From contig CAWHLB010000015.1 of the NCBI GenBank assembly GCA_963830115.1, forward strand, positions 129,178 through 193,177: a stretch of DNA of 64,000 nucleotides, in the 5' to 3' direction. The number at the start of each line of letters is the position of its first letter. Within the stretch, counting starts at the first letter, position 1. Positions 46,317 to 64,000 of this stretch are shown here, piece by piece. The position numbers were made by a program, and so were the translations under genes. Under the pieces are notes generated by a model, which was not told the DNA's origin, ran no database searches, and saw only the letters and a program-made list of their open reading frames with translations. The stretch comes from an uncultured delta proteobacterium. Lineage in GTDB: Bacteria; Myxococcota_A; Polyangia; Polyangiales; CAWHLB01.

Positions 46317-46442
46317 CGGGGCCACGGCGGCCCCTACCTCCCCCAGCCGGCCGAAGCTCCGCAACTCCCTCCCGTCTACCGCGGCGGCTTGACGGGGGGC
46401 GGCTTTCGCGGCTTGCTTGCCCGCTTCGTGGTGGAGGACTCC

Positions 46443-49400: not shown

Positions 49401-50351
49401 CAGCTCTACGCCCTCAACCGCAGCTTCTACGAGGACGCATGGGCCGGCGACCCGAGCCTCGCCGACTTCTGGACGCGCGAAGACGGCTACGGCGCGTGGA
49501 CGCTCGGCGTCGGCGAGAGCTACGCCCTGCTCACGCGTGTGCTCGCGACACCGGCGCCTGGCGGCTACTCCCACACGACGCGCCCCGACGGCACCGATGC
49601 GCTCGGCACGGACTTCTACTCGAGCTCGCCCGACGCCAACGTTTCCTTCGACGACGGGCGCGCCCTCGAGACGACGTGGGACTTCAGCCAGGGCTACTAC
49701 TGGTTCGACCAGATCGCGCGGGCGGGCTTCTTCATCGACAAGGCGCTCGCCATCCAGGTCCTGACCGATCCGACCACCTACTTCATCGGTCGCGACACCA
49801 GCGCCGACGTGCGCCAGTACGAGCTCAGCTTCTACTCGACCTTCGGGCCGAGCCTGACGGGGCTCATGCGCGGGCTCCTCTCCGAGGACTGGAACACGTT
49901 TGCGCCGCGCGTGGGCACCGACGGGAACCTGGTCTATCCGGACCCCTTGCAGCTCGCCCAGGGCGACATGCCGGGCGCGCCCGTGGACCCCGACGCGTCC
50001 TTCAGCCTCGCGCTCTACGGCGCCGTCTTCGGCATGGCGCTCGTGCCCGAGACCTACGACCTGGACTACCTGAACCGCGCGCGCATCTGGGCCCAGGGCA
50101 GCGCCGAGGCGATCGATCCGGCGCCGGGCACCCCGCTCGTCAGCTACACCGATCCCCGGAGCGGCCTGGTCTACCAGGCCGTGTCCTATCCCGACGGGAG
50201 CGGAACGGAGACGGGCGTGGGGGCCCAGATGATCGACCACGCCCTTTCGCTGGACGCCGCGGGCCCGGACGGCCAAGCCGCCCTCCCCCGCTACGTCGAT
50301 CAGCTCGACATGGTCCGCTCCCTGAGCTGGTATCTCGGCTTCGGCCCGTAA
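46443..50351 (+). CDS. Large zinc-dependent metalloprotease lipoprotein (myxobacterial type)
   Basis: RBS GGAGG; lipobox SLGC; IDRVQPN, ADPETG, HEVGHTLGLRHNF (HExxHxxGxxH), Met-turn STVMDY, YRFCSDE. Confidence 0.9.
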   Translation: MRFSSIVAVLVACVVSSLGCNQAQPPIDRVQPNAIDKSLFDGEWYYLQTVIDAPYETQFTFVGDQSSLEKIRWDIQENYLVARRSYQWIAGSQDPGISGRSDAQGAPVGMWKIESHFDIRRQYNPTTGEQLNVVEENTTDRPWYERKYMRVDWSKNLITDTHLFQVARYFDGVTMEPESYYVNDPSDPDAPKFDKDPTTGQVNYIDIVGKVFAQPTTVNIEGWGPVPTCWLEGNEHLDCSSAEITVRHSFLKVDPKDDYQPFDYTGDRMSQFGYFVSERAGYDPHYGVVDPARYRFSDRHDIWAASHRSDASGQPISCTADSDCDDGRGSVCDMDWAKAHRTDHGLCTIAYRDRTVRPIAYHVSDNLPEDLFPDAQFLVDGWSGALHDTVASLRENECLAHGSGAGQCSDERNRPDAAHPFVLCHNPVADGDPEACGASGTVARIGDLRYNLIGWVSDPGLGNPLGYGPSAADPETGRIVQANAFIYGADVEWYATYARDLIAMLNGDLSEADLTSGAAVDAWVQNMQAPGSALRHVVDVTGADASRIDQAMDFRWARPGAGPGRSRGKPRSFAEMRSRFHAAEARIAQAGGYGTGDGSGAARLAALHGTPLERALVGAEARVAAGIDPHQPVDDSVLAAASPLSGHSLAHERALARARQKLRSEPCMLGQDFADDGLLGLARAVQKAVRDGSGTMDWYGKTYSVLGPDGHIDYEAVRTMLRHPIFEATTAHEVGHTLGLRHNFSGSYDSVNYHHQYWQLRDDGNMQPRAWDPMTQAEIDGREREYQTSTVMDYGNNFVVTDAAGVGHYDRAAIKMGYGDLVEVFTNAHDTHDVAEWNALQQEGWEVHLKESSFLNGYPISAYTYTDFPGLVGGINHLEQRADVPYTSLRPEPMLAANGFTANVVDAQGRPAVPYRFCSDEQVNLDPSCMTYDAGADPYESLQSIIDSYWNYYPLAAFRRGRIGFNPSDYYWRVANRYFAKLQEANQLYALNRSFYEDAWAGDPSLADFWTREDGYGAWTLGVGESYALLTRVLATPAPGGYSHTTRPDGTDALGTDFYSSSPDANVSFDDGRALETTWDFSQGYYWFDQIARAGFFIDKALAIQVLTDPTTYFIGRDTSADVRQYELSFYSTFGPSLTGLMRGLLSEDWNTFAPRVGTDGNLVYPDPLQLAQGDMPGAPVDPDASFSLALYGAVFGMALVPETYDLDYLNRARIWAQGSAEAIDPAPGTPLVSYTDPRSGLVYQAVSYPDGSGTETGVGAQMIDHALSLDAAGPDGQAALPRYVDQLDMVRSLSWYLGFGP

Positions 50352-50520
50352 TCGGCCGTCGTCGCCCGCGACGGAGGGCGAGCTCCTGCCGTTCCTCGAG
50401 GACCTCGTTCTGCGAGCGCGCGGCCTCCTGATCGCCACGTGAAGCTTCGCGGCGCGAAGCCCGCGGCCCCCTCCGATGCCGGCTTGTGCACCGCCGGCCG
50501 TGGGCTACTGTCCCTCCGCC

Positions 50521-51162
50521 ATGTCCACGCCCCCCATCCCCCAATCGATCAAGCTCACCTATTTCGACATCCACGGCGGTCGCGGCGAGGCGGCGCGGAT
50601 CGCGCTGTCGATCCGCGGCATTCCGTTCGAGGACGACCGCATCCAGCGCGGGCGCTGGGCCGAGCTCAAGCCCACCATGCCCCTTCGCCAGCTTCCGGTC
50701 CTCGAGGTGGAGGGCAAGCGCATCACGCAGTCGAACGCGATCAACCGCTACGTCGGCAGGCTCGCCGGCCTCTATCCCGACGACCCGTGGCAGGCCGCCA
50801 TTGCCGACGAGGCGTGCGACGCAGTCGAGGCATTCTTCGCCGTGCTCGCCCCGACCTATCACATCGAGGATGCGGCCGAGATGCAGCGCGCGCGCGCGGC
50901 GATCGTCGACGAACCGTTGCCGCTGTACATGGGGGCCCTCGCGGGGATGCTCGCCGAGCGCGGGGGCGAGTGGTTCGCCGACAACCGGCTCACCGTGGCC
51001 GATCTCAAGGTCCGCGAGTGCATCCGCTACCTGACCATCGGAACGCTCGACCACATTCCGCAGGACCTCGTCGGCCGCCTCCAGCCCACCCTCGTGGAGC
51101 ACCTCGAGCGGGTCATGCGCCATCCGGGGGTGCGCGCGTACTACGAGCGCGTCGGGGCGTAG
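50521..51162 (+). CDS. Glutathione S-transferase (Tyr-type, sigma-like)
   Basis: KLTYFD..GRGEAAR, QLPVLEVEG, TQSNAINRY, LTVADL. Confidence 0.92.
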   Translation: MSTPPIPQSIKLTYFDIHGGRGEAARIALSIRGIPFEDDRIQRGRWAELKPTMPLRQLPVLEVEGKRITQSNAINRYVGRLAGLYPDDPWQAAIADEACDAVEAFFAVLAPTYHIEDAAEMQRARAAIVDEPLPLYMGALAGMLAERGGEWFADNRLTVADLKVRECIRYLTIGTLDHIPQDLVGRLQPTLVEHLERVMRHPGVRAYYERVGA

Positions 51163-51465
51163 CTCCCGCCGGGGTATCGGAGTGGTCGCCTGCCCGGACG
51201 CCGGGAGGTCGTGGCCGTCGCGGCACCCGACGGGCATCTCGTCGCCGTCGCCCAGGCGAGGCGCCGCCTCGAGGGGATGGCCCGCCTCGCGGATCTGCTC
51301 CGCGGCAACGCGGGCCCTTACCGCTGAGGCGCCGCCGGACCGGGCTCATGTCCCCGTCGGATTGACGCGGGGAGGCTCAACGCGTGCGCCCGGGGCCGAG
51401 CGGAGGGAATTTTCGGACCGGTCGGGCCGTAGAACGACTCCGCGAGCCACGCGAACGGCTGCTCC

Positions 51466-51605
51466 ATGCGTGGTGTCGGGCGCGATGTCGTCTACTCCCT
51501 GACACTGGCCACGACGAAGCACGTGGTCCTGACCACCATCGCGCCCGTGTCCGGGAGCTACGACACGGTGCTCCACGTGCGCACGACCTGCACCGACGCC
51601 GCCCC
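51466..51605 (+). pseudogene. Isolated fragment of a myxobacterial extracellular beta-sandwich domain
   Basis: DVVYSLTL..VVLTT..SYDTVLHVRTTC matches a recurrent secreted-protein module but has no N- or C-terminal context. Confidence 0.45.
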
Positions 51606-51755
51606 ACCTGGCAGCGGGTTGAGCTCGCGGCGGCCGGGCGTGCGCGCGTGCTAGAAACGCGTCGGGGCGCAACCCCCGTCGCGATGTCGGAGAGCCCGCT
51701 CCGCGGGTCTGGTGCCGCCCCGTCACCTCGCCTAGTCTCAGACCGATCGAGTCGC

Positions 51756-54700
51756 ATGACGAGGCGCGAGCACCCTCAATCACGGCAGGACGCAACCCTC
51801 CTGGCGGTCATGGCCGGCCGCCTCGAGGCAGCACCCTACGCTCCGCTGTACACGTTCCTCGGACCCCGAGGAAACGAGGCGGACTCGGCCGATTGCGAGG
51901 AGGTCGTGCGGCGCGCGGCCGGCGCGGCCGACCTCCTCGAGGCGGCGGGCGTGGGGCCCGGGGATCGCGTTCTTCTGGTCTTTCCCCCGGACGGGCTCGA
52001 GCTCGTCACGAGCTTCTTCGGATGCCTGCTGCTCGGCGCCATCGCCGTCCCGGTCGCGAGCCCGGACCCGCGACACCTCGCGCAGGAGCTGCCCAAGCTC
52101 CGCCACATCGCGATGGACAGCGGCGCCCGCGTCGCCCTCACCCACGCCAAGTACCGAGCGCTCACGACGATGGCGTCGGTACGGGACGGTGTGAGCCGCC
52201 TCCTAAAGGGCCGCCCACCCGACAGGGAGCGCTGGCCGGAGGTCACATGGCTCCTGTCCGACCGCATCCGGCGGGCAGACGCCGGAGCGGCCGCCACACG
52301 TCTCGCGCACGGTGCGCGCACCCAGCGCCCGGACGACGTCGTCTACCTCCAGTACACCTCCGGCTCGACGTCGGCGCCGAAGGGCGTGGTCGTGCGCCAC
52401 CGGAACCTGCTGCACAACCTCTCGCTCATGGCGCGCAACACGCACGTCGACGCGGCGTCGGTTCTCGTGGGCTGGGTGCCCCTGTTCCACGACATGGGGC
52501 TGGCCGGCGGGATCCTCAACGCGATGAGCGCCGGGGCACGATGCGTCTTCTTCTCGCCCATGAGCTTCCTGGCCAATCCCCGCCTCTGGCTCGAGACCAT
52601 CGATCGCTACGGAGGCACGCACATCGCTGGGCCGAACTTCGGCTACGAGTACGTGCTGCGCGGGTTGCGCAACGGCGACGCCTTCGATCTGTCGACCCTG
52701 CGCGCCGCGCTCCAAGGTGGTGAGTCGATGCGGGTCACGACCATGTCGCGGTTCGAGGCGGCTTTCGGATCGATGGGCTTCGACGCCGCGACCTTCTGCA
52801 ACGTGTACGGCATGGCCGAGGCCGTGCTCTTCGTCACCGGTCAGGCGGGGCGAAGGCCGTCCCTGTTGCGCGGCGACCGAGCAATCATGGACCGGGAAGG
52901 CACCCTCGTCGCCCCCGCACCCGGTGCGCCGGCGGTGACACTGGTGGGGAGCGGCGTCCCGGACGCGGAGATGGGCGTGTCGGTGCTCGCCGTCAATCCC
53001 GCGACCCATCGGCCACGGCCGGACGGCGTCGTGGGCGAGCTGTGGGTGTCGAGCCCGAGCGTGTCGACGGGCTACTGGGGACGCAGGGAGGCGGAGAACG
53101 CGGCGGTCTTCGCTGCGCGCCTTTCGAGCGACGACGGTGGAGAGGACCCGCGACGATTCCTCCGCACGGGCGACCTCGGGGTGATCCACGAAGGCGAGGT
53201 GTTCGTCTGCGGCCGCCTCAAGGACCTCATCATCATCGGCGGTCGCAACATCCACCCCCAGGACCTGGAGGAGGCGGTAGTCGCCTCCGACCCGATCCTG
53301 CGGCCGGGCAACGCGCTCGCCTTCGGGGTCGAGGTGGACGGGACCGAGCGTGTGGTGGTGGTCGCGGAGGTGCGCAGGAAGCTCCTCGAGCGAAAGGACC
53401 TCCCCGCGCTCCTCACGCGCGCCATCGCCGCGATCCGAGCGGCGGTCGCGGCCCACGGCGGGGTCCAGTGCCACGACGTCCTGCTCCTTCGCCCGGACAC
53501 GATCCCGAAGACGACCAGCGGGAAGCTGCGCCGCCGGGAGTGCAAGGAGCGGTGGGCGGACGGCTCACTGCACGCGACCAATCGACGCCTCGGTCGTCCG
53601 GCACGGACGCCGGCACCGCCACGGGGTGAGGCCGCACCGTTCGCCGATCGCCCGAACGCGGGCGGCTCGGAGGGACGCGACGCCTACCTGCTCCGTCTGC
53701 TCCAGACCGAGGTCGCGGCGGCGCTGCACCTGGCCGACCCCGACGACGTGTCGGTGGATCGACCGCTCCTCGACCTGGGCCTCGATTCGCTCGGGTTGAT
53801 GGATCTGGGCAGGCGCCTCGAGGATCGGCTGGGGATGGCGGTGCCGCCGGCGAGCCTGAGCGATGCGTCGAGCCTGCGCGCGCTGGCCGACCTCCTCCTC
53901 GCGCGCTTCGAGCTGCCACCCGACGACGAGGGGCGGGCGCACCCGAGCCCGCACGCGGTCCACGCCGGAGACGTGCCGTTCACGGCCGGCCAGCTCGAGT
54001 CCCTGCGCCTAGGTCAGTGGAGCTGGTGGAACCGCGCCGCCCTCCTCACCGTCCATCGCCCGATCACCCCGGAGCAGCTCCACCGGGCGGCGTCGGTCCT
54101 GGTCGCCCACCACCACGCCCTGCGCCTCCGGTTCCACCGCGACGGCGACCGCTTCACCCAGCACTACGGAGACGTGGACGGAAGCTTCGCGGTCGAGTCG
54201 ACGTCCTTGACGGCGCCGGACGAGGGCACCCGCCGCGACGCGCTCCTTCGCGCGATGGACGTCCAGCACCGACGCGTGGACCTGGAGCGCGGCCCCGTCC
54301 TTCGCCTCCTGTTGGTGGAGGGGCTCGGGCCCACCCAATGCCTCTTCGTCACGATCAACCACCTGGTGATGGACGCCTTCACGCTCGGGATCCTCGTCGA
54401 CGAGCTCGACCACCTCTGCCATCTGGACGAGATGGAGAGGCCCCTGCGCCTCTCCCGGACCTCGACCCGGTTCGAGGACTACGCCCGTTGGGTGAACGAC
54501 TTCGCGCGGGGAGCCGCCGTCGACGACCTGGTCTTCTGGCAGGCGCAGCTCGACACGCCGCCGCCCTGCGCCTACGACTCGCGCGTCCAGGAGCCCGTCC
54601 GGATGGCCGACCTGGCGAGCGGCGGTGAGCGCTTCACGGAGGCGGAGACGCGCGCGCTCCGGGAGGTCTGCACCGAGGGCCGTCGCGCACCCATCGCGAC

Positions 54701-55286
54701 GACGCTGCTCGCGGCGTTGGTGCGGACGGCTCGAGGTCGGTGGGGGTGCGGGCGCCTGACGGTCAAGCTCTCGAGCTCGGGCAGGCAAGCCGCGGTGCAC
54801 GGGCTCGACGTGTCGCGGACGTTGGGTGAGATGGACTGCGCGTTCCCGCTGGCCGTCTCCCACACCGCATCCGAGCGCCCCATCGAAACCGTCGCGGCGG
54901 TGCGCGATCGCCTGGCGTGCGTCCCCTCCGCGGGGATCTCGTTCGACGCCCTCGCGCACCTGAACGACGACCCGGCGGTGCGGGACCGCATTGCCAGCGC
55001 ACCCGCGCCGACGCTATGGTTCAACTTCGCGGGGGAGGTGCCGTCTCGCAGCCGCCCGACCGGCCTCTTCTCCGTCCTCGAAGGTCCGCTGGGTGCCATG
55101 TGGGATCCCCGAGCCGGCGTGAAACAGCCTCCATTGCTGGTCGAGTGCTCCATCGTGGGGGGCGCTGCGCGTACGCACTGGTTCTATTCGCGGGAGCACC
55201 TGGGCTGGTCCGAGTCGGAGATCGACCTGTGGCGCGCGCGCTTCCGTGAGGAAGTGCTCGCCCTCGCACGAGCTGGAACGAGTTAG
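51756..55286 (+). CDS. Fatty acyl-AMP ligase - carrier protein - condensation-domain protein
   Basis: FAAL: YLQYTSGSTSAPKGV, WVPLFHDMGL, YGMAEA, LRTGDLG, GRNIHPQDLE, IPKTTSGK; ACP LGLDSL; C-superfamily domain HHALRLRF, INHLVMDA, FNFAG; no thioesterase. Start may be 51684. Confidence 0.9.
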   Translation: MTRREHPQSRQDATLLAVMAGRLEAAPYAPLYTFLGPRGNEADSADCEEVVRRAAGAADLLEAAGVGPGDRVLLVFPPDGLELVTSFFGCLLLGAIAVPVASPDPRHLAQELPKLRHIAMDSGARVALTHAKYRALTTMASVRDGVSRLLKGRPPDRERWPEVTWLLSDRIRRADAGAAATRLAHGARTQRPDDVVYLQYTSGSTSAPKGVVVRHRNLLHNLSLMARNTHVDAASVLVGWVPLFHDMGLAGGILNAMSAGARCVFFSPMSFLANPRLWLETIDRYGGTHIAGPNFGYEYVLRGLRNGDAFDLSTLRAALQGGESMRVTTMSRFEAAFGSMGFDAATFCNVYGMAEAVLFVTGQAGRRPSLLRGDRAIMDREGTLVAPAPGAPAVTLVGSGVPDAEMGVSVLAVNPATHRPRPDGVVGELWVSSPSVSTGYWGRREAENAAVFAARLSSDDGGEDPRRFLRTGDLGVIHEGEVFVCGRLKDLIIIGGRNIHPQDLEEAVVASDPILRPGNALAFGVEVDGTERVVVVAEVRRKLLERKDLPALLTRAIAAIRAAVAAHGGVQCHDVLLLRPDTIPKTTSGKLRRRECKERWADGSLHATNRRLGRPARTPAPPRGEAAPFADRPNAGGSEGRDAYLLRLLQTEVAAALHLADPDDVSVDRPLLDLGLDSLGLMDLGRRLEDRLGMAVPPASLSDASSLRALADLLLARFELPPDDEGRAHPSPHAVHAGDVPFTAGQLESLRLGQWSWWNRAALLTVHRPITPEQLHRAASVLVAHHHALRLRFHRDGDRFTQHYGDVDGSFAVESTSLTAPDEGTRRDALLRAMDVQHRRVDLERGPVLRLLLVEGLGPTQCLFVTINHLVMDAFTLGILVDELDHLCHLDEMERPLRLSRTSTRFEDYARWVNDFARGAAVDDLVFWQAQLDTPPPCAYDSRVQEPVRMADLASGGERFTEAETRALREVCTEGRRAPIATTLLAALVRTARGRWGCGRLTVKLSSSGRQAAVHGLDVSRTLGEMDCAFPLAVSHTASERPIETVAAVRDRLACVPSAGISFDALAHLNDDPAVRDRIASAPAPTLWFNFAGEVPSRSRPTGLFSVLEGPLGAMWDPRAGVKQPPLLVECSIVGGAARTHWFYSREHLGWSESEIDLWRARFREEVLALARAGTS

Positions 55287-55293
55287 CGCTTCC

Positions 55294-56553
55294 ATGGCGG
55301 ATCGAGCGACCACATTTCGCGAAGGGACGTCGGCGACCACGACTCGAAGGAGCGGCCGCGCCGCGTCGAGCGAGCACGCGCCCGGGCCGTTCCGGGGGCT
55401 GGCGGACCGGGCCTTTGCCATGGCCTTCCAGCAGATCTTCACCTTCCCCCTCCTCTACGAGGATTCGGAGGTGGACAACCAGGTCCTCGGCCTCCGTCCC
55501 GACTCCCGGGTCCTTTCGGTGAGCGGGGCCGGTTGCGGCGTGGCCGGGCTCCTGGCCGCCCATCCGGCGCGCATCGACGCGGTGGACACCAACCGCCATC
55601 ACTTGGCCCTGACCGCGCTCAAGGTCGCGGCGGCTCGCCGGATGTCGTCCCATGACGAGCTGTACCAGCTCCTCGGACGGGGCCGACACGACCACCCGGC
55701 GCGCATCCTCGGGCCGCTCATGAACGGCTTGCCGGCGTGGGTGGGGCGCTACTGGAACGAGAACCACCGCCGCTTTCGACGCAACGTCTATGGCGAAGGG
55801 CTGGTCGGCAGCTTTCAGAAGTGGCTGCGGCACGAGACCGGCCTCGACGCCGGGTTCCTTCGCGCCATGCAACCCCTGGCCATCGAGGATCGTCTGGCAC
55901 ACCTTTCGCCGGTGCTCGACGCGGTGCGGTGCTCGCGGTTGTTCCGCGTCGTCGCCAACAGCCCGCTCTTCCTGCTCGGCCACGGCATCAACTTCGAGCA
56001 ACGGCAACGCAACCTCCGTGCCCATCAGGCCCGGAGCATGGTGGAGGTCGTGACCGCGCACCTCGAGCGCCTGGCCTACACCGACCTCGAGACCAACTGG
56101 TTCGTATGGGTCGGCCTGACCGGCGCCTTCAACCACGATCACCCCGACGCCGTGCCTCCCTACCTGCGCGCCGAGAGCCACAGGAGGTCGCGCGAAGCGC
56201 CCACCGACGTGGTCTTCCACCACCTCCCCCTAAAGCGCGTGCTCGCCGCGGCGGCGCCCGGACGCTGGTCCCACTTCTCGCTGTGCGACGTGCTGGACTG
56301 GATGCCCGCAGACACCCAGCGTCGCCTGCTGCAGCACATCGCCCATGTCGGTGGCCCGGGTGCCGTCGTCCTGACGCGCAGCGTGGAAGATGCGTGCGTC
56401 GTCGATCGCCTCGGTCTCGACGGGATGTACGAACGGCTCGAGCCGCGCTCGAGCGAGGCCGGCCAGAGGGAACGGACGAGGCTCTACGCGCGCGTCGGTG
56501 TCTACCGCGTGACCGGCGGACCGAACGGATCGACGGCGAGCGCTGGCGCATGA
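55294..56553 (+). CDS. btaA: SAM:diacylglycerol 3-amino-3-carboxypropyl transferase (DUF3419, BtaA-like)
   Basis: YEDSEVD, SVSGAGC, IDAVDTNRHHLAL..LK, NWF, PPYL, LCDVLDWM, GAVVLTRS, ERTRLY. Confidence 0.85.
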   Translation: MADRATTFREGTSATTTRRSGRAASSEHAPGPFRGLADRAFAMAFQQIFTFPLLYEDSEVDNQVLGLRPDSRVLSVSGAGCGVAGLLAAHPARIDAVDTNRHHLALTALKVAAARRMSSHDELYQLLGRGRHDHPARILGPLMNGLPAWVGRYWNENHRRFRRNVYGEGLVGSFQKWLRHETGLDAGFLRAMQPLAIEDRLAHLSPVLDAVRCSRLFRVVANSPLFLLGHGINFEQRQRNLRAHQARSMVEVVTAHLERLAYTDLETNWFVWVGLTGAFNHDHPDAVPPYLRAESHRRSREAPTDVVFHHLPLKRVLAAAAPGRWSHFSLCDVLDWMPADTQRRLLQHIAHVGGPGAVVLTRSVEDACVVDRLGLDGMYERLEPRSSEAGQRERTRLYARVGVYRVTGGPNGSTASAGA

Positions 56554-57203
56554 CCGCCGTGTCGGCACCGCCGGAGGGAAGCCGCGCCGAGGCGCAGGCG
56601 GCCCATCGCGCGTTCCTCGACCGCTACTATCGAGCCACCCATCGCGTCTACGACGTCTCGCGCAAGTACTTCCTGTTCGGACGCGACGCGGTCCTCGATC
56701 GCCTCCTCGACGACGACTGGAGCACGCTCGTGGAGATCGGCCCCGGCACCGGCCGCAACCTGCACCGCCTGCACCGCCGCCGGCCCGAGGCGCGCCTCGG
56801 CGGGCTCGAGGCGAGCGACGTCATGCTCTCCCATGCGCGACGCCGCTGCCCATGGGCGCGCTTCGAGCCCGGCCTCGCCGAGGACGGTGACCTGCGGGCC
56901 GTCCTCGGCACGCCCCCGGAGCGCATCCTGATCTCCTACAGCATGTCCATGTTCCAGGCCCCGGGGCGCGCCATCGACAACGCCCTCGGACAGCTCGCTC
57001 CGGGCGGCGAGCTGTGGGTCGTGGACTTCTCCGACCTCGCGCGGACACCCACCTTGCCGCGAACGGCGATGCTCCGATTCCTCTCGGCCTTTCACGTCCG
57101 CCCCGTCGCGGACGACCTCCTGCGCGACCGTGGCGCGCGCCATCTCGAGCACGGCCCCGGCCGCTACTTCGTCGTCGCGCGGTTCGTCGCCGAGGGCGGG
57201 TGA
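56550..57203 (+). CDS. btaB: SAM:diacylglycerylhomoserine N-methyltransferase (BtaB-like)
   Basis: LDRYYR..VYDVSRKYFLFGRD, EIGPGTGRNL, SYSMSM, LAPGGELWVVDF, LSAFHV; ATGA overlap with btaA. Confidence 0.88.
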   Translation: MTAVSAPPEGSRAEAQAAHRAFLDRYYRATHRVYDVSRKYFLFGRDAVLDRLLDDDWSTLVEIGPGTGRNLHRLHRRRPEARLGGLEASDVMLSHARRRCPWARFEPGLAEDGDLRAVLGTPPERILISYSMSMFQAPGRAIDNALGQLAPGGELWVVDFSDLARTPTLPRTAMLRFLSAFHVRPVADDLLRDRGARHLEHGPGRYFVVARFVAEGG

Positions 57204-58054
57204 GCTCCCCTCGGGCGGCGCTCGGTGTCACGCAACGGGCTCGCCCTGTCCTATCGCGTCGTCGGACGGGGCTCCCCTGTCCTGTTCATCGCGGGCTATG
57301 GTCGATCCGGGAGCAGCTGGCTCCCGTGGCTGGAACAGGTGGGCCCCCTGCCCTTCCGGGTCGTGCTCATGGACAACCGAGGCACAGGCGAATCGACGGT
57401 GTCGAAGCGGCCCTACACCATGGCGACCCTGGCCGACGACGCGGCGACGGTGCTGCGCGATGCCGTCGGCGGCGAGCCCGCCATCGTGGTGGGCCACTCG
57501 ATGGGCGGGATGGTCGCGCAGCATGTGGCCCTCCGGCACCCGGAGCAGGTGGCGGGGATGGTGCTGTCGTCCAGCTCCGCGCGCGTGGAGATTTTCCGCC
57601 CGGCCTCGGTGCGCTCCCTGCCCCTGACCGTGCTGGCGACCCTCTCGCGCGACGTGCGGGTGTGGCAAATGTGCGACGGACTGCTCGTGCACGAGCACAG
57701 GCGCGGAGCCGCGGCCCACGCGCTCTTGTCCCCGCTGCGCCAGTTACAGAAGGCCGAGCCCTACTCGCGCCTGAACTCCGCCATGCAGCTCTGCGCCATG
57801 TCCTTCCACCGGACGCACCGACGCCTCGGTGCCGTGCGTGTCCCCGTCGAGGTGGTGGTCGGTGCCGGCGACCGCGTGCTGTCGCCCGAGGCTCCCATCG
57901 CCTCGCGCGAAACTTCCCCGATGCACGCCTCACGGTCCTTTCGAACGTGGGTCACGCGATCCCCTTCGAGCAACCCCTCGCGATCGCGAAGGCCCTCACG
58001 CGGCTCCGCGAGAGGATCACGGCGGCGCCGGGCGCGGTGGCACCTCGAGGCTAG
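57200..58054 (+). CDS. Alpha/beta hydrolase (frameshifts near 57225 and 57890)
   Basis: DNRGTGES, GHSMGG, GAGDRV; catalytic His (VGHAIPFEQP) in the neighbouring frame; GTGA overlap with btaB stop. Confidence 0.85.
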   Translation: MSSPRAALGVTQRARPVLSRRRTGLPCPVHRGLWSIREQLAPVAGTGGPPALPGRAHGQPRHRRIDGVEAALHHGDPGRRRGDGAARCRRRRARHRGGPLDGRDGRAACGPPAPGAGGGDGAVVQLRARGDFPPGLGALPAPDRAGDPLARRAGVANVRRTARARAQARSRGPRALVPAAPVTEGRALLAPELRHAALRHVLPPDAPTPRCRACPRRGGGRCRRPRAVARGSHRLARNFPDARLTVLSNVGHAIPFEQPLAIAKALTRLRERITAAPGAVAPRG

Positions 58055-59738
58055 CGAAGAAGCGAGCGCGACAGAGCAGCGGCACCAGCAGGAGGCTGTG
58101 CAGCAGGAGCTGCTTTGCGGCCCCGCGCTCGCCCTGGTACGAGCTCATGTACGTGCGCTCACGAAACGCCACATGGGACGCCTCCTGGGCCAGGGTGCCG
58201 AAGACGAGCAGCCCCGCGTAGAGGGGCCACCCGAGGGGCGGCAGGGCGAGGTAGATGCCCAGCACCGCGCCGGCGTAGAGGGCCGACATGGAGGCGGTGT
58301 GATCGGGGGCGGTGTAGTAACAGAAGAAGACGTAGTAGACCGCGAGGCAGACCGCCGCGGCCGCGGGCGTCCAGCCGAGCGCACGCGCGCCGACGCCGAC
58401 GAGCCCCAGCACGCCGAGCAGGCCGAGCGCCGTGGTGAGCAGGTGGACCGAGACGTTGCCCGGTCTCCGATGGAAGCGTGAGAACGCCTCGTAGGTCTCT
58501 TCGAAACGATAGGTGCCCCCCACGTGCCAGTCGCCGATCTCCTGGCAGAGGACGATCAGGTAGCAGGCCATGTGGGCGATCAGCAGGGGCCACCACGCCG
58601 CTCGGAACGTCGCGTTCATCATGAGCCCGGCCAAGCCGATCCACTTGCCGACGATCATGGGGTGGGGAATCACCGAGTAGGGGAACCCCGAGGTCTTTTC
58701 TTTCGGGACGACACCGAGCTCGACGCCGAAGTAGGTCCGGTCGGCGCCGAGCCGGAGGAAGGCGAGCCCGGACAGCCCGAAGCCGAGGGCGGCGACGCCC
58801 AGCGACGGGATGTCGAGGGGCACGCCCGCGTACTCGTAGAACAGGAAGCCGAGGGCCAGGGTCTGGAACAGGGAGGCGTCGCGCCGAAGCTTGCCGGGCT
58901 CGACCGCACGAAACGTGTAGGCGAGCAGATACAAAAGGTAGTGAACGAAGCTGAACAGGTACACCCGCTCGACGGGATGGCCCCACGTCACGCCCCCGAG
59001 AAGCAGGATCACCAAGAGGTTCAGGACGCCGGCGTGCTCGTTGAACAGGCCGTAGAGAAAAGTGCTCGCGTTGACGAGAACGCCCAGCAGCTTGCCGAGC
59101 CAGGTGCGGGGGTTCTTGCTCGCGAGGAAGAGCTGCCGTGCCCTCCGGTTGTACGCCGCGTTCCAGGCCGCGAAGGCCGCGTGCACGGGCCGGAGCCATC
59201 GCGGCGCGACCGCGTAATGCACCTTGAGACAGATGCGGCTGTCGGTCAGCAGCTCCTGTGCGTCACCATCCTTGACGATGTGGTGGAGGTCACGGTTGTA
59301 ATCGAACCAGCAAAACTGTCCCGAGGCGAGCGTGGTCCGGGACTTGTGGTTTTCGAAGACGGTGGTGACGCGGTCACTGCCGCGGATGACGATGAGACAC
59401 CGGAGCAGGGTGAGGAACGGGATGAAGCCGAAGGGCCCGTCGATGTGCCGCTGCAGGAAGACATAGTCGGACCCCTTGGCCCCCATGTGGGTCACGTAGA
59501 CCTCGTTCATGGCGTCGACGTGATGGACGTCGCATCCGGGGAAGGCCTCGCGGATGCTGTCCCGGATGGCGGTCGAGTCCTTGAGCTGACCGAACGCCTC
59601 GCGTTCCCTCGGGGGCAGGTCCGCCTCCCAGAGGTGGAGCGTCTCGTTGGGGTCGTGCTGCTGCTGCACCGTGAAGTCCAGCATCGTCTGGATGTGGCTG
59701 CCGGTGGGCTCCTCGACCAGGCCGATTCCGGGTTTCAT
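58017..59738 (-). CDS. Three-domain membrane protein: HxD...H metal-dioxygenase-like + PEMT phospholipid methyltransferase + Mpo1/DUF962-like
   Basis: N-terminal GSDYVF..HIDGP..FDYNRDLHHI..LKVHY; central LGADRTYFGVELG..GFPYSVIPHPMIVG; C-terminal FHRRPGNVSVH..AQEASHVAF.E; single uninterrupted frame. Confidence 0.75.
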   Translation of the reverse strand: MKPGIGLVEEPTGSHIQTMLDFTVQQQHDPNETLHLWEADLPPREREAFGQLKDSTAIRDSIREAFPGCDVHHVDAMNEVYVTHMGAKGSDYVFLQRHIDGPFGFIPFLTLLRCLIVIRGSDRVTTVFENHKSRTTLASGQFCWFDYNRDLHHIVKDGDAQELLTDSRICLKVHYAVAPRWLRPVHAAFAAWNAAYNRRARQLFLASKNPRTWLGKLLGVLVNASTFLYGLFNEHAGVLNLLVILLLGGVTWGHPVERVYLFSFVHYLLYLLAYTFRAVEPGKLRRDASLFQTLALGFLFYEYAGVPLDIPSLGVAALGFGLSGLAFLRLGADRTYFGVELGVVPKEKTSGFPYSVIPHPMIVGKWIGLAGLMMNATFRAAWWPLLIAHMACYLIVLCQEIGDWHVGGTYRFEETYEAFSRFHRRPGNVSVHLLTTALGLLGVLGLVGVGARALGWTPAAAAVCLAVYYVFFCYYTAPDHTASMSALYAGAVLGIYLALPPLGWPLYAGLLVFGTLAQEASHVAFRERTYMSSYQGERGAAKQLLLHSLLLVPLLCRARFFASLEVPPRPAPP

Positions 59739-60023
59739 CGGAGGCCCTCCCCGGGCGACGAAGGCGGCCGCCCGGATGGACGGGGGCGCGCGCGAGGCGG
59801 TCCGTGGTGCTGCTCCGAGCCCTCCCAATCACGTGCACGCCCTCGGCTCGGCACCCGCCGACGGTACCACGGAGGGAAGAGGTCGCGACGCAGAGCGGGC
59901 GTGGATGCCATCGAGGGTCCGGCGGCTCGGAGCACCGATTTTCCTTTCCAGCGTTCCTGCGACTTTATACCATCGCGCGTGCGTCTGGCCCGGTCGCCGA
60001 AGTTGGAACAGACGAAGTCATGC

Positions 60024-61676
60024 ATGCAGCGGCCAACTGAAACGCGGGCGCCTGACACCGGTGTGCGCTCGCCTTTCGGCCAGCAGGACATCGTCGACGC
60101 CGTTCGGCGAACACGGGAGTCGTTGCAGCTGCTCCGAGACCCGCTCACTGGCACGATGGGCGTCGCCGCCGCGGGAGCCGCCGACCCGTCGCCGGCACGC
60201 GCCCGTGCGAGCGGATGGGAGCCGATGGGCGTGCTGCCGCCCCTCTACCCGGAGTGGCTCGGGGACCGCGCCTTCGCGGAGGCCCACGCCGTGCGCTTCC
60301 CCTACGTGGCCGGCTCCATGGCCAACGGCATCGCCACGCCTGCGCTCGTCGTGGCCATGGCGCGTGCCGGCATGCTCGCCTTCTTCGGCGCGGCCGGGTT
60401 GTCCCTCGCGCGCGTCGAGGCCGGGGTCGACGAGATCGCGCGGCGCCTCGAGGGGCGGCCCCTCGCCTGGGGCGCCAACCTCATCCACTCGCCCCAGGAG
60501 CCGGCCCTCGAAGAGGCGGTCGCCGACCTCTACGTCCACAGGGGCGTGCCGCGGGTGGAGGCCTCCGCCTTCATGGCGCTCGCGCCGAGCGTGGTCCGCT
60601 ACGCCGCCGCCGGTCTCCACGTCGACGCCCAGGGCGAGATACGACGGCGCCACCGGGTCCTCGCGAAGGTCTCCCGCGCCGAGGTCGCCCGTCCGTTCAT
60701 GTCGCCGGCGCCGGCGGAGATGCTGCGCGCCCTGGTCGCGTCGGGACGCCTGTCCGCAGAGGAGGCTCGCCTCGCGGCCCTCGTGCCGGTGGCGACCGAC
60801 ATCACGGTGGAGGCGGACTCGGGAGGCCACACCGACAACCGCCCCCTCGCCGCGCTCTTGCCGACCCTGTTCCGGCTCCGGGACGAAATCGAGTCGACCC
60901 TCGGCAGGCCCGGCACGATCCGTATCGGCGCCGCCGGCGGGCTCGGCACCCCCCAGGCCGTCGCCGCGGCCTTCGCCCTCGGCGCCGCCTACGTGATGAC
61001 CGGCTCGATCAACCAGGGCGCCCTCGAGTCGGGTTTGTCCGACGAGGGCAAGCGGATGCTCGCCGGCGCGGGGATCGCCGACGTCGCCATGACCGCTGCC
61101 GCCGACATGTTCGAGCTGGGGGTCAAGCTGCAGGTGCTCGCGCGCGGCACCATGTTCGCCGTGCGCGCCAACAAGCTCTACGAGACCTACCGTGCACACC
61201 CCGCCCTCGACGCGCTGCCCCCGGCCCTGCGCGCCGAGCTCGAGCAGAGGGTCTTCGGCGCGTCCCTCGACACTGTGTGGGAAGATACAAAGTCCTTCTG
61301 GCGCGATCGCGACCCCGAGCAAGTCGCGCGCGCGGAGGCCGATCCGAAGCACCGGATGGCGCTCGTCTTTCGCTGGTACCTCGGGCTGTCGAGCCGCTGG
61401 GCCATCGTGGGGGAGGCCTCGCGCCGCGCGGACTTCCAGATCTGGTGCGGGCCGGCCATGGGCGCCTTCAACGACTGGGTGAAGGGCTCGTTTCTCGAGG
61501 CGCCCGAGGAGCGCACCGTCGTCCAGATCGCCCACAACCTCCTCGAAGGGGCGGCCGTGATGACGCGCGCCCAGCAGCTTCGGAGCCACGGCGTGCCGGT
61601 GCCGGCGCGCGCATTCCAGTTTCGGCCGCGACGGCTCGCGTATGGCCCTGCGACCGCAGAACGGGAGGATCGATGA
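60024..61676 (+). CDS. pfaD: PfaD-family enoyl reductase (myxobacterial Pfa1)
   Basis: YVAGSMANGIA, NLIHSP, AKVSRAEVA, EADSGGHTDNRP, GAAGGLGTP, AADMFELG, QIWCGPAMGAFN. Confidence 0.95.
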   Translation: MQRPTETRAPDTGVRSPFGQQDIVDAVRRTRESLQLLRDPLTGTMGVAAAGAADPSPARARASGWEPMGVLPPLYPEWLGDRAFAEAHAVRFPYVAGSMANGIATPALVVAMARAGMLAFFGAAGLSLARVEAGVDEIARRLEGRPLAWGANLIHSPQEPALEEAVADLYVHRGVPRVEASAFMALAPSVVRYAAAGLHVDAQGEIRRRHRVLAKVSRAEVARPFMSPAPAEMLRALVASGRLSAEEARLAALVPVATDITVEADSGGHTDNRPLAALLPTLFRLRDEIESTLGRPGTIRIGAAGGLGTPQAVAAAFALGAAYVMTGSINQGALESGLSDEGKRMLAGAGIADVAMTAAADMFELGVKLQVLARGTMFAVRANKLYETYRAHPALDALPPALRAELEQRVFGASLDTVWEDTKSFWRDRDPEQVARAEADPKHRMALVFRWYLGLSSRWAIVGEASRRADFQIWCGPAMGAFNDWVKGSFLEAPEERTVVQIAHNLLEGAAVMTRAQQLRSHGVPVPARAFQFRPRRLAYGPATAEREDR

Positions 61677-64000
61677 GCGACGGGATCGAGAGTGCACGTG
61701 CCGCATCGGGGCGCGTGCCGCCCATCGCCGTCGTGGGCGTGGGTGCCCACTTCCCGGGGTCGACCGACGTGCTCGGCTTCTGGCGCGACATCCTGGAGGG
61801 CCGCGACCGGCTGACGGAGGTGCCGCGGACCCATTGGCTGTCGTCCGACTACTTCGATGCGACGCCGGGCACGCCCGACAAGGTGTACGCGACGCGGGGC
61901 GGCTTCCTCCCGTCCGTGCCCTTCTCGCCGGTGGACTTCGGCATGCCACCGAACACGCTCCCCGCGACCGACTCGGCCCAGCTCCTCGCCCTCCGCGTCG
62001 CCAAGCGCCTCCTCGAAGATGCGACGCGCGGTCGCTTCGCGTCGGTGGACCGGAGCCGCATGAGTGTCGTTCTCGGCGTGGCCTCGGCCACCGAGCTCGT
62101 GGGCCACATGGCGGGCCGCCTGCAGCTGCCCGTGTGGAAGCGCGCGCTACGGGAGGCCGGGCTCGCGGACGGAGAAGTCGAGCGGGTCAGTCAGATCCTG
62201 GCGGCCTGCTACACGCCCTGGCAGGAGAGCACGTTCCCCGGGCTCCTCGGCAACGTGGTCGCCGGTCGCGATCGCCAACCGGCTGGACCTCGGGGGAACC
62301 AACGCCGTCGTCGACGCGGCGTGCGCCAGCTCGCTCGCGGCCATCGACATCGCCATGAACGAGCTCGCCCTCGATCGGGCGGACCTGGTGGTCACGGGCG
62401 GCGTCGATGCGTTGAACGACATCTTGATGTTCATGTGCTTCGCCCAGACCGGCGCCCTCTCGAAGAGCGGCGATTGCCGCCCCTTCTCGGACGAGGCCGA
62501 CGGCACCATGCTCGGCGAGGGCGTCGGCATGCTCGCCCTCAAGCGGCTCAGAGACGCCGAGCGCGACGGCGATCCCGTCTATGCGGTGCTGCGCGGGATG
62601 GGCACCTCCTCCGACGGACGCGCGAGCAGCATCTACGCGCCTCTGCCCCGAGGTCAGGCCGCCGCCCTGCGCCGCGCCTACGAGCGCGCCGGCTATGGCC
62701 CGGCGACGATCGAGCTGCTCGAGGCCCACGGCACGGCAACGCCTGTCGGCGACGCGGCGGAATTCGAGTCGACGCGAACCGTCTTCGAGGAGGACGGCGC
62801 GCCGCGGCGACGCTGCGCGCTCGGCTCGGTCAAGTCGCAGATCGGCCACACCAAGGCGGCGGCAGGCGCGGCGGGCGCTGATCAAGACCGTGATGGCGCT
62901 CCATCACCGCACGCTTCCACCGACGATCAAGGTCCGGGCACCGAACCCCGCCCTGCGCATCGAGGAGAGCCCCTTCTACCTCAACACGGAAGCGCGCCCG
63001 TGGATCGCACCCCCCGACCGTCCGCGCCGCGCCGGGGTCAGCGCCTTCGGCTTCGGCGGCACCAACTTCCACCTCACGCTCGAAGAGTACCGCGGCACGG
63101 GCCCGCGCCCGCCGCGCCTGCGGACCCTGCCCTCCGAGCTCTTGCTCTTCGGGGGCGCCGATGCGGGCGACCTGGCCGCCCAGTGCCGCGAGGCCGTGGA
63201 CCTGGTCGGAGCGCCGGGCGCCATCGCGCACCTCGCCCGGCGGACCGCAGCGCGAGCTCGACGCGACCGCCGCCCGCGCGCCTCGCGATTGTCACCGACG
63301 ACGACGCGGCGCGGGACAAGCTCGCCCAGGCGACGGCGGCCCTCGAGGCGACCACCTCGTCCCACTTCTCCTTGCCGCAGGGTATCCACTTCGGCAGCGG
63401 ACCGGCCGCCGGCGGGGTCGCGTTCCTGCTCCCGGGTCAGGGCAGCCAGTACACGGGCATGGGGCGCGACCTGGGGCTCCACTTCGACGCGGCGCGCGCG
63501 GTGTGGGATCGCGCCGCCGCCCTCGACTTCGGCGATGGCTTGCACCGGCGAGTCTTTCCGCCGCCGCCCTTCGGGCGAGAGGAGCGCGAGGAGGCGGAGC
63601 GACGTCTGCGCGCGACCGAATGGGCCCAGCCCGGCATCACCGCCATGAGCCTCGGCATGCTGGCGCTGCTCCGATTGGTGGGCCTCGCGCCCATGTGTGT
63701 TGGAGGTCATAGTCTCGGCGAGCTCACGGCGCTCTTCGCGGCGGGCGTGCTCGATGAGCGGGGCGCCGTGGGGGTGGCGCGCCGGCGCGGCGAGCTGATG
63801 GCGAAGGCCAGCGAGGTCCCTGGCGCCATGACGGCGGTGTTCGCGGACGTGGACACGCTGCGCGCGCTCCTGTCTTCGTGGAAGAGCGACGTCGTCGTGG
63901 CGAACCACAACGCGCCCGGGCAGGCTGTGCTCTCGGGCGCGGTCGCCGCCATCGAAGAGGTCGAGCGCCGCCTCGCCGGGGAGGCGATCACGACGCGGCG
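61673..64000 (+). CDS. pfaA: Iterative type I PUFA synthase, KS-MAT region (PfaA / myxobacterial Pfa2); 3'-partial, frameshifts near 62268, 62876, 63246, 63277
   Basis: PIAVVG, FPGLLGNVVAGR-IANRLD, DAACASSL, EAHGTAT, KSQIGHTKAAAG, SAFGFGGTNFH; AT LPGQGSQY, GHSLGEL, ANHNAP; ATGA overlap with pfaD. Confidence 0.92.

Follow-up and report, generated by a model that had tools for sequence, protein, structure and literature searches.

A fatty acyl-AMP ligase-carrier-BtaA/BtaB gene cassette beside PUFA-synthase-type genes: conserved organisation and a proposed role in betaine-lipid assembly

We analyzed a stretch of 64,000 nucleotides from the genome draft of an uncultured delta proteobacterium (assembly GCA_963830115.1, contig CAWHLB010000015.1, positions 129,178 to 193,177; hereafter the window), which contains near its end a compact gene cassette that is conserved in other bacteria. 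In this cassette a single gene for a fatty acyl-AMP ligase (FAAL), a carrier and a condensation-superfamily (C) domain is joined to homologues of the betaine-lipid genes btaA and btaB and to a hydrolase gene. A gene for a membrane protein is convergent on the cassette, and genes of the polyunsaturated fatty acid (PUFA) synthase type (pfa) follow. In this DNA of 70% GC, a plot of the GC content per codon position separated the true frames from many open antisense frames, and the third-position GC (GC3) plot backed the frames of FAAL-carrier-C, btaA, the methyltransferase, pfaD and pfaA. The cassette genes are packed with a 7-nt gap, an ATGA overlap and a 21-nt gap (Table 1). A first-pass annotation, made from the sequence alone, had placed the stop of the FAAL-carrier-C gene at 55286, btaA at 55294 and btaB in an ATGA overlap, and these calls are borne out by an open reading frame with three Pfam domains, by a DUF3419 match of 167 bits in the gene 7 nt past the preceding stop, and by a 217-aa methyltransferase gene starting at 56550. 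The hydrolase had been placed in a GTGA overlap (57200), but that frame has no family match and the hydrolase frame starts at the GTG at 57225. As had also been noted, pfaD and then pfaA follow 2 kb further on, but the interval is filled mostly by the convergent membrane-protein gene, which had been missed.

The three parts of the FAAL-carrier-C protein were recognized by Pfam as AMP-binding (PF00501, E 2e-62), PP-binding (PF00550, 52 bits, E 6e-14) and Condensation (PF00668, 78 bits, E 1e-21). The best solved relatives of the first 620 residues are FAALs (7r7e with E 5e-95, 3kxw, FadD32, FadD23, 3pbk and FadD28), and the best NCBIfam names for the ligase are fatty-acid--AMP ligases, each scoring below its high cut-off. 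The motifs YTSGSTSxPKG, GRxKD and PKTxSGK are unvarying in 19 of 19 orthologues, as is the carrier motif GLDSL (G675-L679, with the DSL serine). Judged from its sequence, the ligase has an adenylate-forming fold and is a FAAL, nearer to proven FAALs than it is to CoA ligases or amino-acid A domains.

The third domain, which the first-pass annotation had called a condensation domain, is by both sequence and fold of the epimerisation (E) type and not a standard condensation domain. Its best sequence matches in the PDB are the E domains PvdL E2, TycA, GrsA and TycB3 (E 1.5e-44 to 1e-16), within the PvdL model it is the E-domain part that matches, and the E-domain profile TIGR01720 reaches 37.7 bits against a cut-off of 74.2. 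When a structure model of the domain (pLDDT 70) was compared by Foldseek, E domains came first and C domains after, with a probability of 1.00 throughout the top PDB matches; the best fold matches are E domains with Foldseek E-values of 4e-29 to 1e-23 and TM-scores of 0.72-0.80. The slot of the HHxxxDG motif reads NHLVMD(A/G), in which the N, the H (the second, catalytic His) and the D are unvarying, the first His always being replaced by Asn. The signature of E domains in nonribosomal peptide synthetases (NRPS) includes a catalytic Glu in the motif EGHGRE. Here the equivalent motif reads SSSGRQ, FS(S/T)GRQ or ASSGRQ in 13 of 13 cases and the Glu is missing, so the domain departs from the E-domain signature and epimerisation appears unlikely. 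Since the catalytic His and Asp are kept while the E-domain Glu motif is lost, we expect the domain to catalyse acyl transfer and not epimerisation; of the inferred steps in the interpretation given below, this one is the weakest.

The BtaA homologue is the sole DUF3419 gene found in the window genome, its match spanning positions 5-381 of the 385 of PF11899 (cut-off 28.2 bits), and it is predicted to be a 3-amino-3-carboxypropyl transferase dependent on S-adenosylmethionine (SAM). It is 65-72% identical to proteins of Asanoa, Actinoplanes, Paractinoplanes and soil metagenomes, and 40-47% identical to those of Myxococcota. In an alignment of BtaA proteins from loci that contain the FAAL-carrier-C gene (FAAL-linked) and loci that contain btaAB without it (plain), 64 columns are conserved alike in both groups and 7 differ, all of them conservatively. 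Because of these shared columns and the conservative nature of the differences, the aminocarboxypropyl-transfer chemistry is likely to have been retained, and a diacylglycerol-like acceptor has probably been retained as well. For the BtaB-like protein, Methyltransf_25 gives 24.6 bits, short of its cut-off (27), and none of the NCBIfam models assigns the protein a name; its size, its position and its EIGPGTG motif fit a class-I SAM methyltransferase following btaA. Of 78 related loci, 75 have a BtaB homologue (41-76% identity) no more than about 160 nt past BtaA; in the other three, the contig ends before that point (L006, L067) or the distance is 4.8 kb (L076). The hydrolase matches Abhydrolase_1 with 86 bits. 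Its first frame holds the GHSMGG serine and a GAGD motif, its second frame holds NVGHAIPFEQP with the catalytic His, and the alignment to an orthologue passes from the one frame to the other at 57890.

To place the cassette in a wider context we scanned one genome per species for BtaA, which gave 78 loci. The linkage noted in the window recurs in other genomes: FAAL-carrier-C lies directly upstream of BtaA in all 8 genome loci of this BtaA clade (58-75% identity), as opposed to none of the 70 plain loci. These 8 loci come from 7 Micromonosporaceae and one metagenome-assembled genome (MAG) of an actinomycete. The methyltransferase and hydrolase genes follow in 7 of them and the convergent membrane gene in 6, the gaps being due to one contig that ends early and to the MAG, which has no membrane gene. 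In the plain loci the methyltransferase gene adjoins BtaA in 68, is 4.8 kb away in one and is lost to a contig end in one. Among 14 soil metagenome loci, 9 of the 13 informative ones have BtaA directly 3' of the C domain, and in all 18 other loci with both, the start of the BtaA match falls, relative to where the C-domain match ends, anywhere from 70 nt ahead to 51 nt beyond. Of the 8 genome loci, 7 have the hydrolase gene (the eighth contig ends before the site), as does L101.

The cassette proteins of the window are 58-76% identical to those of Micromonosporaceae, whereas Myxococcota kin carry only plain btaAB, at 40-47%. Synteny within the Myxococcota, which the first-pass annotation had suggested looking for, did not emerge: 200 other genomes of the window's order contain no close homologue of the C domain, the best match of 31% reflecting ordinary NRPS similarity. 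In a collection of 5.8 billion proteins the C domain found 45 cluster representatives at 54-63% identity, followed by a gap down to 31% or less, and the named ones among the 45 are all from Micromonosporaceae. A tblastn search of a plasmid collection with the C domain gave no match. The system is thus typical of Micromonosporaceae and not of myxobacteria, and among the genomes searched it was found in one myxobacterial genome only. In a sample of 301 genomes from the Actinoplanes family, 10 carry the C domain, 6 of them with the full cassette and 4 without detectable BtaA. In the latter, FAAL-carrier-C is solitary beside HTH/DUF433-PIN genes (G405, locus L099; G444, locus L100), stands with an MFS transporter, a second AMP-binding enzyme and a TetR regulator (G301, locus L097), or is convergent on pfaC/pfaA with a gene for a large, weakly patatin-like protein upstream (G337, locus L098).

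The pfa genes next to the cassette show the Pfam domains in the expected order together with partial TIGR02813 matches, which classes them as a Pfa cluster. The full pfaA encodes KS-AT-carrier(s)-KR-PS-DH, with frame changes within the window at about 62270, about 62865 and 63100-63270. A 1-acylglycerol-3-phosphate acyltransferase (AGPAT) domain (PF01553) was found neither in the pfaC pieces of the window genome or the 3 kb past them, nor in the intact actinomycete PfaC proteins of L007 and L098 (E<=0.01). PfaD of the window is 61% identical to that of a Sandaracinaceae MAG and 58-60% identical to actinomycete PfaD; the single TGA inside PfaD matches is the gene's own stop codon in all four examined. 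The neighbourhood with a PUFA synthase, to which the first-pass annotation had drawn attention, proved to be conserved in three other gene orders. Of the 8 FAAL-linked genome loci, 6 have pfa-type genes no more than 10 kb away; none of the 70 plain btaAB loci does. Actinoplanes and two Paractinoplanes have a pfaD-pfaA-pfaC set divergent from the FAAL gene; in two Asanoa, pfaD-pfaA-pfaC and the membrane gene form one operon convergent on the cassette; and in the MAG (L002), pfaC lies 5' of the FAAL gene and is read in the same direction. The window represents a fourth order. Divergent pfaD is also found upstream in 4 of the 6 metagenome contigs with enough upstream DNA. In the 301-genome sample, PfaD of at least 56% identity occurs in 6 of the 10 carriers of the C domain and in 8 of the 291 others, two partial matches, one of which comes from an unpublished genome, being left out; as related genomes are not independent, this comparison is descriptive only.

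The history of the cassette was traced with unrooted, quick-mode trees, of which the BtaA tree omits 28 of the 78 rows (the matched stretch ran past a stop) and the C-domain tree has 28 rows. The FAAL-linked BtaA clade forms a single split with an approximate likelihood ratio (SH-aLRT) support of 100, on a long separate branch. In both trees the window sequence is, on a long branch, sister to the actinomycete sequences and not nested in them. The C-domain copies without BtaA fall mostly into one nested clade (6 rows, SH-aLRT 97), and loss of the head-group module therefore looks secondary. Cassette proteins of the window share 60-75% identity with those of actinomycetes, which share 75-83% among themselves. 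By these comparisons it is clear that the cassette has moved between phyla, and the window genome probably gained it by horizontal transfer from an actinomycete-like lineage, a donor favoured because the cassette is broadly spread in actinomycetes. PfaC of the window is 53% identical to that of its Sandaracinaceae relative and 46-50% identical to actinomycete PfaC; the relative's PfaC is 48-49% identical to the latter, and actinomycete PfaC proteins share 70% among themselves. Both PfaC and PfaD of the window are thus slightly nearer to the relative. As the pfa genes are no closer to the actinomycete ones than those of the relative are, the cassette probably arrived separately from a resident-type pfa cluster, and its adjacency to pfa despite a separate arrival would be independent support for a functional tie. 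At the relative's own pfa cluster (G203 contig 18, 32 kb) the pfa genes and kinases alone match the window, and no empty insertion site was seen.

The membrane protein encoded by the convergent gene is a candidate three-part enzyme and a member of the conserved set. It consists of an N-terminal domain resembling 2-oxoglutarate/Fe(II) oxygenases, a central PEMT-like methyltransferase and a C-terminal, weakly Mpo1-like helical module. The PEMT match (PF04191, profile positions 8-94 of 105) is marginal, with 27.1 bits for the whole protein and 29.1 bits for the central part against a cut-off of 25, and the Mpo1-like match of 17.6 bits is under its cut-off of 24. No Pfam match was obtained for the N-terminal domain, in which H98-x-D100 and H152/H174 are candidates for an HxD...H iron triad; H98, D100, H152, R168, K172 and H174 are unvarying in 24 homologues. 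In the structure model (pLDDT 83) the fold of this domain matches PHD2, a viral prolyl hydroxylase (vCPH) and AndA, albeit weakly (E 2e-4 to 1e-3, target-normalised TM 0.43-0.60). A protein-language-model Atlas score of 0.83 agrees with an oxygenase-like N-terminus, and the look-alikes in the same Atlas are diatom and chlorophyte clusters; both serve as leads only. Orthologues of the membrane protein (63-70% identity) adjoin the cassette in 6 of the 8 genome loci, in L101 and in all 8 metagenome loci that reach the site. Of the 70 plain btaAB loci, 7 have a more distant homologue next to these genes (L034, L036, L037, L038, L045, L062, L073). Myxococcales MAGs and a record of the green alga Pyramimonas contain distant homologues in which the Mpo1-like module, with the motifs HxxxxNxxxH…TT.G and ERTY.SSY, is N-terminal instead; this shift is a domain permutation within one membrane-protein family.

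Table 1. Genes and domains of the cassette and its surroundings. Coordinates are window positions; those beyond 64000 are window-equivalent.
Feature	Position	Strand	Size	Remarks
FAAL-carrier-C	51756..55286	+	1176 aa	ATG 51756, stop 55284-55286; Pfam domains
Fatty acyl-AMP ligase part	~51756-53615	+		
Carrier	~53697-53897	+		
C-superfamily domain	~53961-55283	+		
BtaA homologue (DUF3419)	55294..56553	+	419 aa	PF11899; ATG 7 nt past FAAL-carrier-C stop
BtaB-like small SAM methyltransferase	56550..57203	+	217 aa	ATGA overlap with btaA
Alpha/beta hydrolase	57225..58054	+	~276 aa read through	GTG start; frame break ~57890
Membrane protein	58017..59738	-	573 aa	Convergent; GC3 frame plot; PEMT match
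pfaD (pfa1), enoyl reductase	60024..61676	+	550 aa	TIGR02814 640 bits, cut-off 449
pfaA (pfa2), 5' part	61721..64000, off window end	+		Full gene to ~68030
pfaC	After pfaA, to ~74665			KS-CLF and FabA-type dehydratases
Bacterial alpha-2-macroglobulin	32009-37138		1709 aa	Upstream neighbour
1345-aa protein	46317-50351		1345 aa	Upstream neighbour; short Met-zincin (DUF4953) match

The source genome is a 6.87-Mb draft in 38 contigs that is estimated to be 70.8% complete, and the window lies inside a contig of 258.5 kb. The rpoB gene of this genome is split into 8 frame pieces, without stops within the pieces (G000 contig 4, 187143-191205; L090/L091); frequent indels are therefore a property of the assembly, and single-base indels probably also depress the completeness estimate. 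Because rpoB is equally broken, the frame breaks in the hydrolase and pfa genes are most likely assembly indel errors and not signs of gene decay, and a pseudogene reading of the hydrolase and pfaA was set aside on the same ground. For 54500-64000, a look-up of sequencing runs listed none, and none with RNA. The genome is that of a soil myxobacterium. One RpoB piece of 566 aa matches that of the Sandaracinaceae MAG over its whole length with 82% identity and is 71% identical to that of Nannocystis punicea, and its matches in two actinomycete genomes are confined to short pieces. The window also codes for an outer-membrane efflux protein (OEP), and its alpha-2-macroglobulin has matches in both myxobacterial genomes tested and none in two actinomycetes. 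Neither this gene nor that of the 1345-aa DUF4953 protein was seen near actinomycete cassettes.

At the left border of the cassette (51117-51699), a 73-nt direct repeat with 75% identity copies the last codons and the stop of the GST gene. The copied gene end reads …RHPGVRAYYERVGA up to the stop, and the second copy lies 510 nt downstream, just 5' of the FAAL start. Between the copies there is an open fragment (…DVVYSLTLATTKHVVLTTIAPVSGSYDTVLHVRTTC…) with coding-like GC3 and no start. The repeat and the gene fragment may be a recombination scar. An Rfam scan of 50000-64000 (E<=1) gave no matches, a tRNA scan of 40000-64000 found none, and a scan for promoters and terminators gave one promoter-like and two terminator-like sites, which is no excess over shuffled sequences. 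Past pfaC there is a 2.8-kb stretch of very high GC3 (0.97; L092 12900-15680, window-equivalent ~74900-77680), which on the plus strand reads as a Pro/Gln/Val-rich repeat (…VPQVPQLARSVSVSTQLVPQSVGVPPPQ…) broken by stops and has no Pfam match. This stretch may be a repeat protein split by assembly errors, or the antisense of one.

We propose that the genes constitute a self-contained lipid-assembly cassette, in which a dedicated acyl-loading route would feed BtaA and BtaB to give a homoserine-betaine lipid and would often be supplied by a Pfa-type synthase without AGPAT; we put the probability of this interpretation at roughly one half. The ligase would adenylate a free long-chain fatty acid and load it onto its own carrier. 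Where pfa genes are adjacent, this fatty acid would be the pfa product, freed by the hydrolase or by another thioesterase, a mode of release that we propose because the PfaC proteins at these loci show no AGPAT off-loading domain. The C-type domain would then move the acyl chain to a hydroxyl (or an amine) of a lipid acceptor, and BtaA and BtaB would build a head group of the trimethylhomoserine type on the resulting diacylglycerol-like lipid, after which the membrane protein might modify the head group or the chain further. The predicted product is a betaine lipid of the type of diacylglyceryltrimethylhomoserine (DGTS), the acyl composition of which would be set by the thiotemplated route and not by the general phospholipid pool. 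Like the first-pass annotation, we infer that the product is a non-standard betaine lipid. The related idea that the cassette remodels DGTS, the hydrolase removing an acyl chain and FAAL-carrier-C adding one, has been weakened, the hydrolase being missing at 4 of the 8 metagenome loci that span its site.

Several points weigh against the proposed cassette function. An acceptor is not readable from the sequence, and the C domain groups with epimerisation domains and not with known ester- or amide-forming C domains. Because of this grouping and the loss of both the first His of HHxxxDG and the E-domain Glu, the chemistry of the domain is uncertain, and it could be non-catalytic or serve in docking. 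Other bacteria need nothing beyond BtaA and BtaB to make DGTS (cited in PMC6383925). No BtaA was detected in 4 of the 10 carrier genomes, and 4 of the 13 informative metagenome loci have no BtaA directly downstream; FAAL-carrier-C therefore has a function of its own. Nor are pfa genes required, since no PfaD was found in the cassette genomes G205 (E<=1e-20) and G414 (E<=1e-30). The absence of the hydrolase from half of the spanning metagenome loci makes it an optional component that is dispensable elsewhere, and in the window genome the hydrolase and pfa genes carry frame breaks.

The copies of FAAL-carrier-C that stand alone (G405, G444) or without BtaA (G301, G337), the existence of 70 plain btaAB loci without FAAL-carrier-C, and the unchanged core residues of BtaA would also fit two independent functions that travel together, btaAB making ordinary DGTS from membrane diacylglycerol and FAAL-carrier-C making an unrelated N- or O-acylated small molecule. 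We consider this unlikely, however. BtaA of this clade never occurs apart from FAAL-carrier-C (8 of 8 genome loci, G414 and 9 metagenome loci), the order is constant with near-zero spacing, the set has crossed a phylum boundary as a unit, and the nesting of most BtaA-less C-domain copies in one clade suggests secondary loss. Less probable again, and in our view doubtful, is the possibility that the FAAL-carrier part is a loading module that primes the Pfa-type synthase, the C domain off-loading the chain and BtaA/BtaB decorating a hydroxyl of a polyketide-like lipid instead of diacylglycerol. The logic of a FAAL acting ahead of a polyketide synthase (PKS) is established for FadD/Pks pairs, the FAAL-carrier-C gene adjoins pfaC/pfaA even without btaAB (G337, locus L098), and 3 genomes and 4 metagenome contigs have pfaD immediately beside the FAAL gene in divergent orientation. 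Yet the full cassette occurs in the two genomes in which PfaD was not found, the cassette and the pfa genes of the window genome have different histories, and BtaA shows none of the radical substitutions that would hint at a new acceptor. That the cassette is a decaying or non-functional relic of transfer, or the contig a chimera of assembly or binning, is very unlikely, as the frame breaks in the hydrolase, pfaA and pfaC of an incomplete draft and the duplicated GST end with its gene fragment at the left border are outweighed by the equally fragmented state of the essential rpoB, by the three largest cassette genes, which are intact at full length with 60-75% identity and all motifs, by the location of the cassette inside its 258.5-kb contig between Gram-negative-type genes (OEP, alpha-2-macroglobulin) and pfa genes slightly nearer to a myxobacterial relative, and by a cassette GC3 that resembles that of the neighbours.

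The proposed cassette function can be taken further, to betaine lipids of a new class made on a thiotemplated route independent of phospholipids, the whole module being interchangeable between phyla and able to connect to resident pfa clusters; we regard this extension as speculative and doubtful. Here a chain released from the PUFA synthase would be re-activated by the FAAL and esterified by the repurposed epimerisation-type domain, and homologues of BtaA and BtaB would cap the lipid with trimethylhomoserine. The oxygenase/PEMT-like/Mpo1-like membrane protein would then re-tailor the head group, which could amount to an oxidative conversion of the type leading from DGTS to diacylglycerylhydroxymethyltrimethylalanine (DGTA). 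An enzyme named for the DGTS-to-DGTA step was found neither among the matches listed by a literature search nor in the available part of PMC6383925.

Betaine lipids replace phospholipids under phosphate scarcity, and in bacteria BtaA and BtaB, working on membrane diacylglycerol, are believed to be all that their synthesis requires. If the proposed cassette function is true, there are soil bacteria that choose the acyl chains with which their betaine lipids are built or edited. This function would also explain how Pfa-type synthases without AGPAT deliver their product, and it would provide a first function for an epimerisation-type domain placed after an acyl carrier. The membrane protein, which is shared with algae, would be a candidate for missing head-group steps of betaine lipids, and the transfer across phyla to a site beside a resident pfa cluster would be a case of modular pathway assembly. 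The cultured carriers (Asanoa, Actinoplanes, Paractinoplanes) allow direct testing. The first-pass annotation knew of no described system with this combination, and none turned up in the open full-text literature, subscription journals being mostly outside its coverage; within the main texts of these mostly non-subscription sources, none was found that links BtaA/DUF3419 with a FAAL, a C domain or a bacterial PUFA synthase. In the parts available, PMC7923214 mentions DUF3419 as a flanking gene only and PMC11631085 treats aminolipids without describing a BtaA-FAAL combination.

The known kinds of system represented at this locus are the BtaAB betaine-lipid pathway and the FAAL/PKS/acyltransferase lines of lipid synthesis; what is new is their conserved combination. 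The BtaA/BtaB pathway makes the betaine lipid DGTS in Rhodobacter sphaeroides (Klug and Benning 2001, as cited in the available part of PMC6383925). As in that pathway, a DUF3419 gene in the window is followed by a translationally coupled gene for a SAM methyltransferase of about 210 aa, and the 64 shared columns link the BtaA homologue to the plain btaAB group, this comparison set consisting of genome homologues. In contrast to that pathway, the window clade, which occupies a long separate branch, always has FAAL-carrier-C ahead of btaA and has the oxygenase/methyltransferase-like membrane protein as a companion. In mycobacteria, envelope lipids are made by the logic of FadD (a FAAL), PKS and PapA (an acyltransferase of the C superfamily). 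The cassette resembles this logic in that a FAAL loads a carrier, a C-superfamily domain is the candidate transferase to an alcohol or amine, a large iterative synthase is encoded nearby and the setting is largely that of actinomycetes. It differs in that FAAL, carrier and C domain are in one polypeptide, the C domain is of the epimerisation type, the synthase is of the Pfa type and a SAM-derived head group is predicted; PapA5 was not among the PDB sequence matches of the C domain (E<=0.01). Set beside the E domains of NRPS (PvdL E2, TycA E, GrsA E, TycB3 E), the window domain recognisably has the seven E-type motif regions, as commonly named, in order, but it is the last in its protein, follows an acyl and not an aminoacyl carrier, and has HH changed to NH and EGHGRE to SSSGRQ. 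'Type L' secondary-lipid clusters have been reported from Actinobacteria and Deltaproteobacteria (PMC3098273, in its available part). Terrestrial myxobacteria of the genera Aetherobacter, Sorangium and Minicystis have pfa1-pfa2-pfa3 clusters in which a C-terminal AGPAT domain of Pfa3 terminates the chain by transfer into phosphatidic acid (PMC8436480, as far as available). The window order of pfaD, pfaA (KS-AT-carrier-KR-DH) and pfaC (KS-CLF-FabA dehydratases) is like that of these clusters as described there. Unlike in the Pfa3 described there, no AGPAT was detected at the end of PfaC at our locus; transfer into phosphatidic acid is therefore not encoded there, and the FAAL cassette is a candidate substitute for the missing off-loading step.

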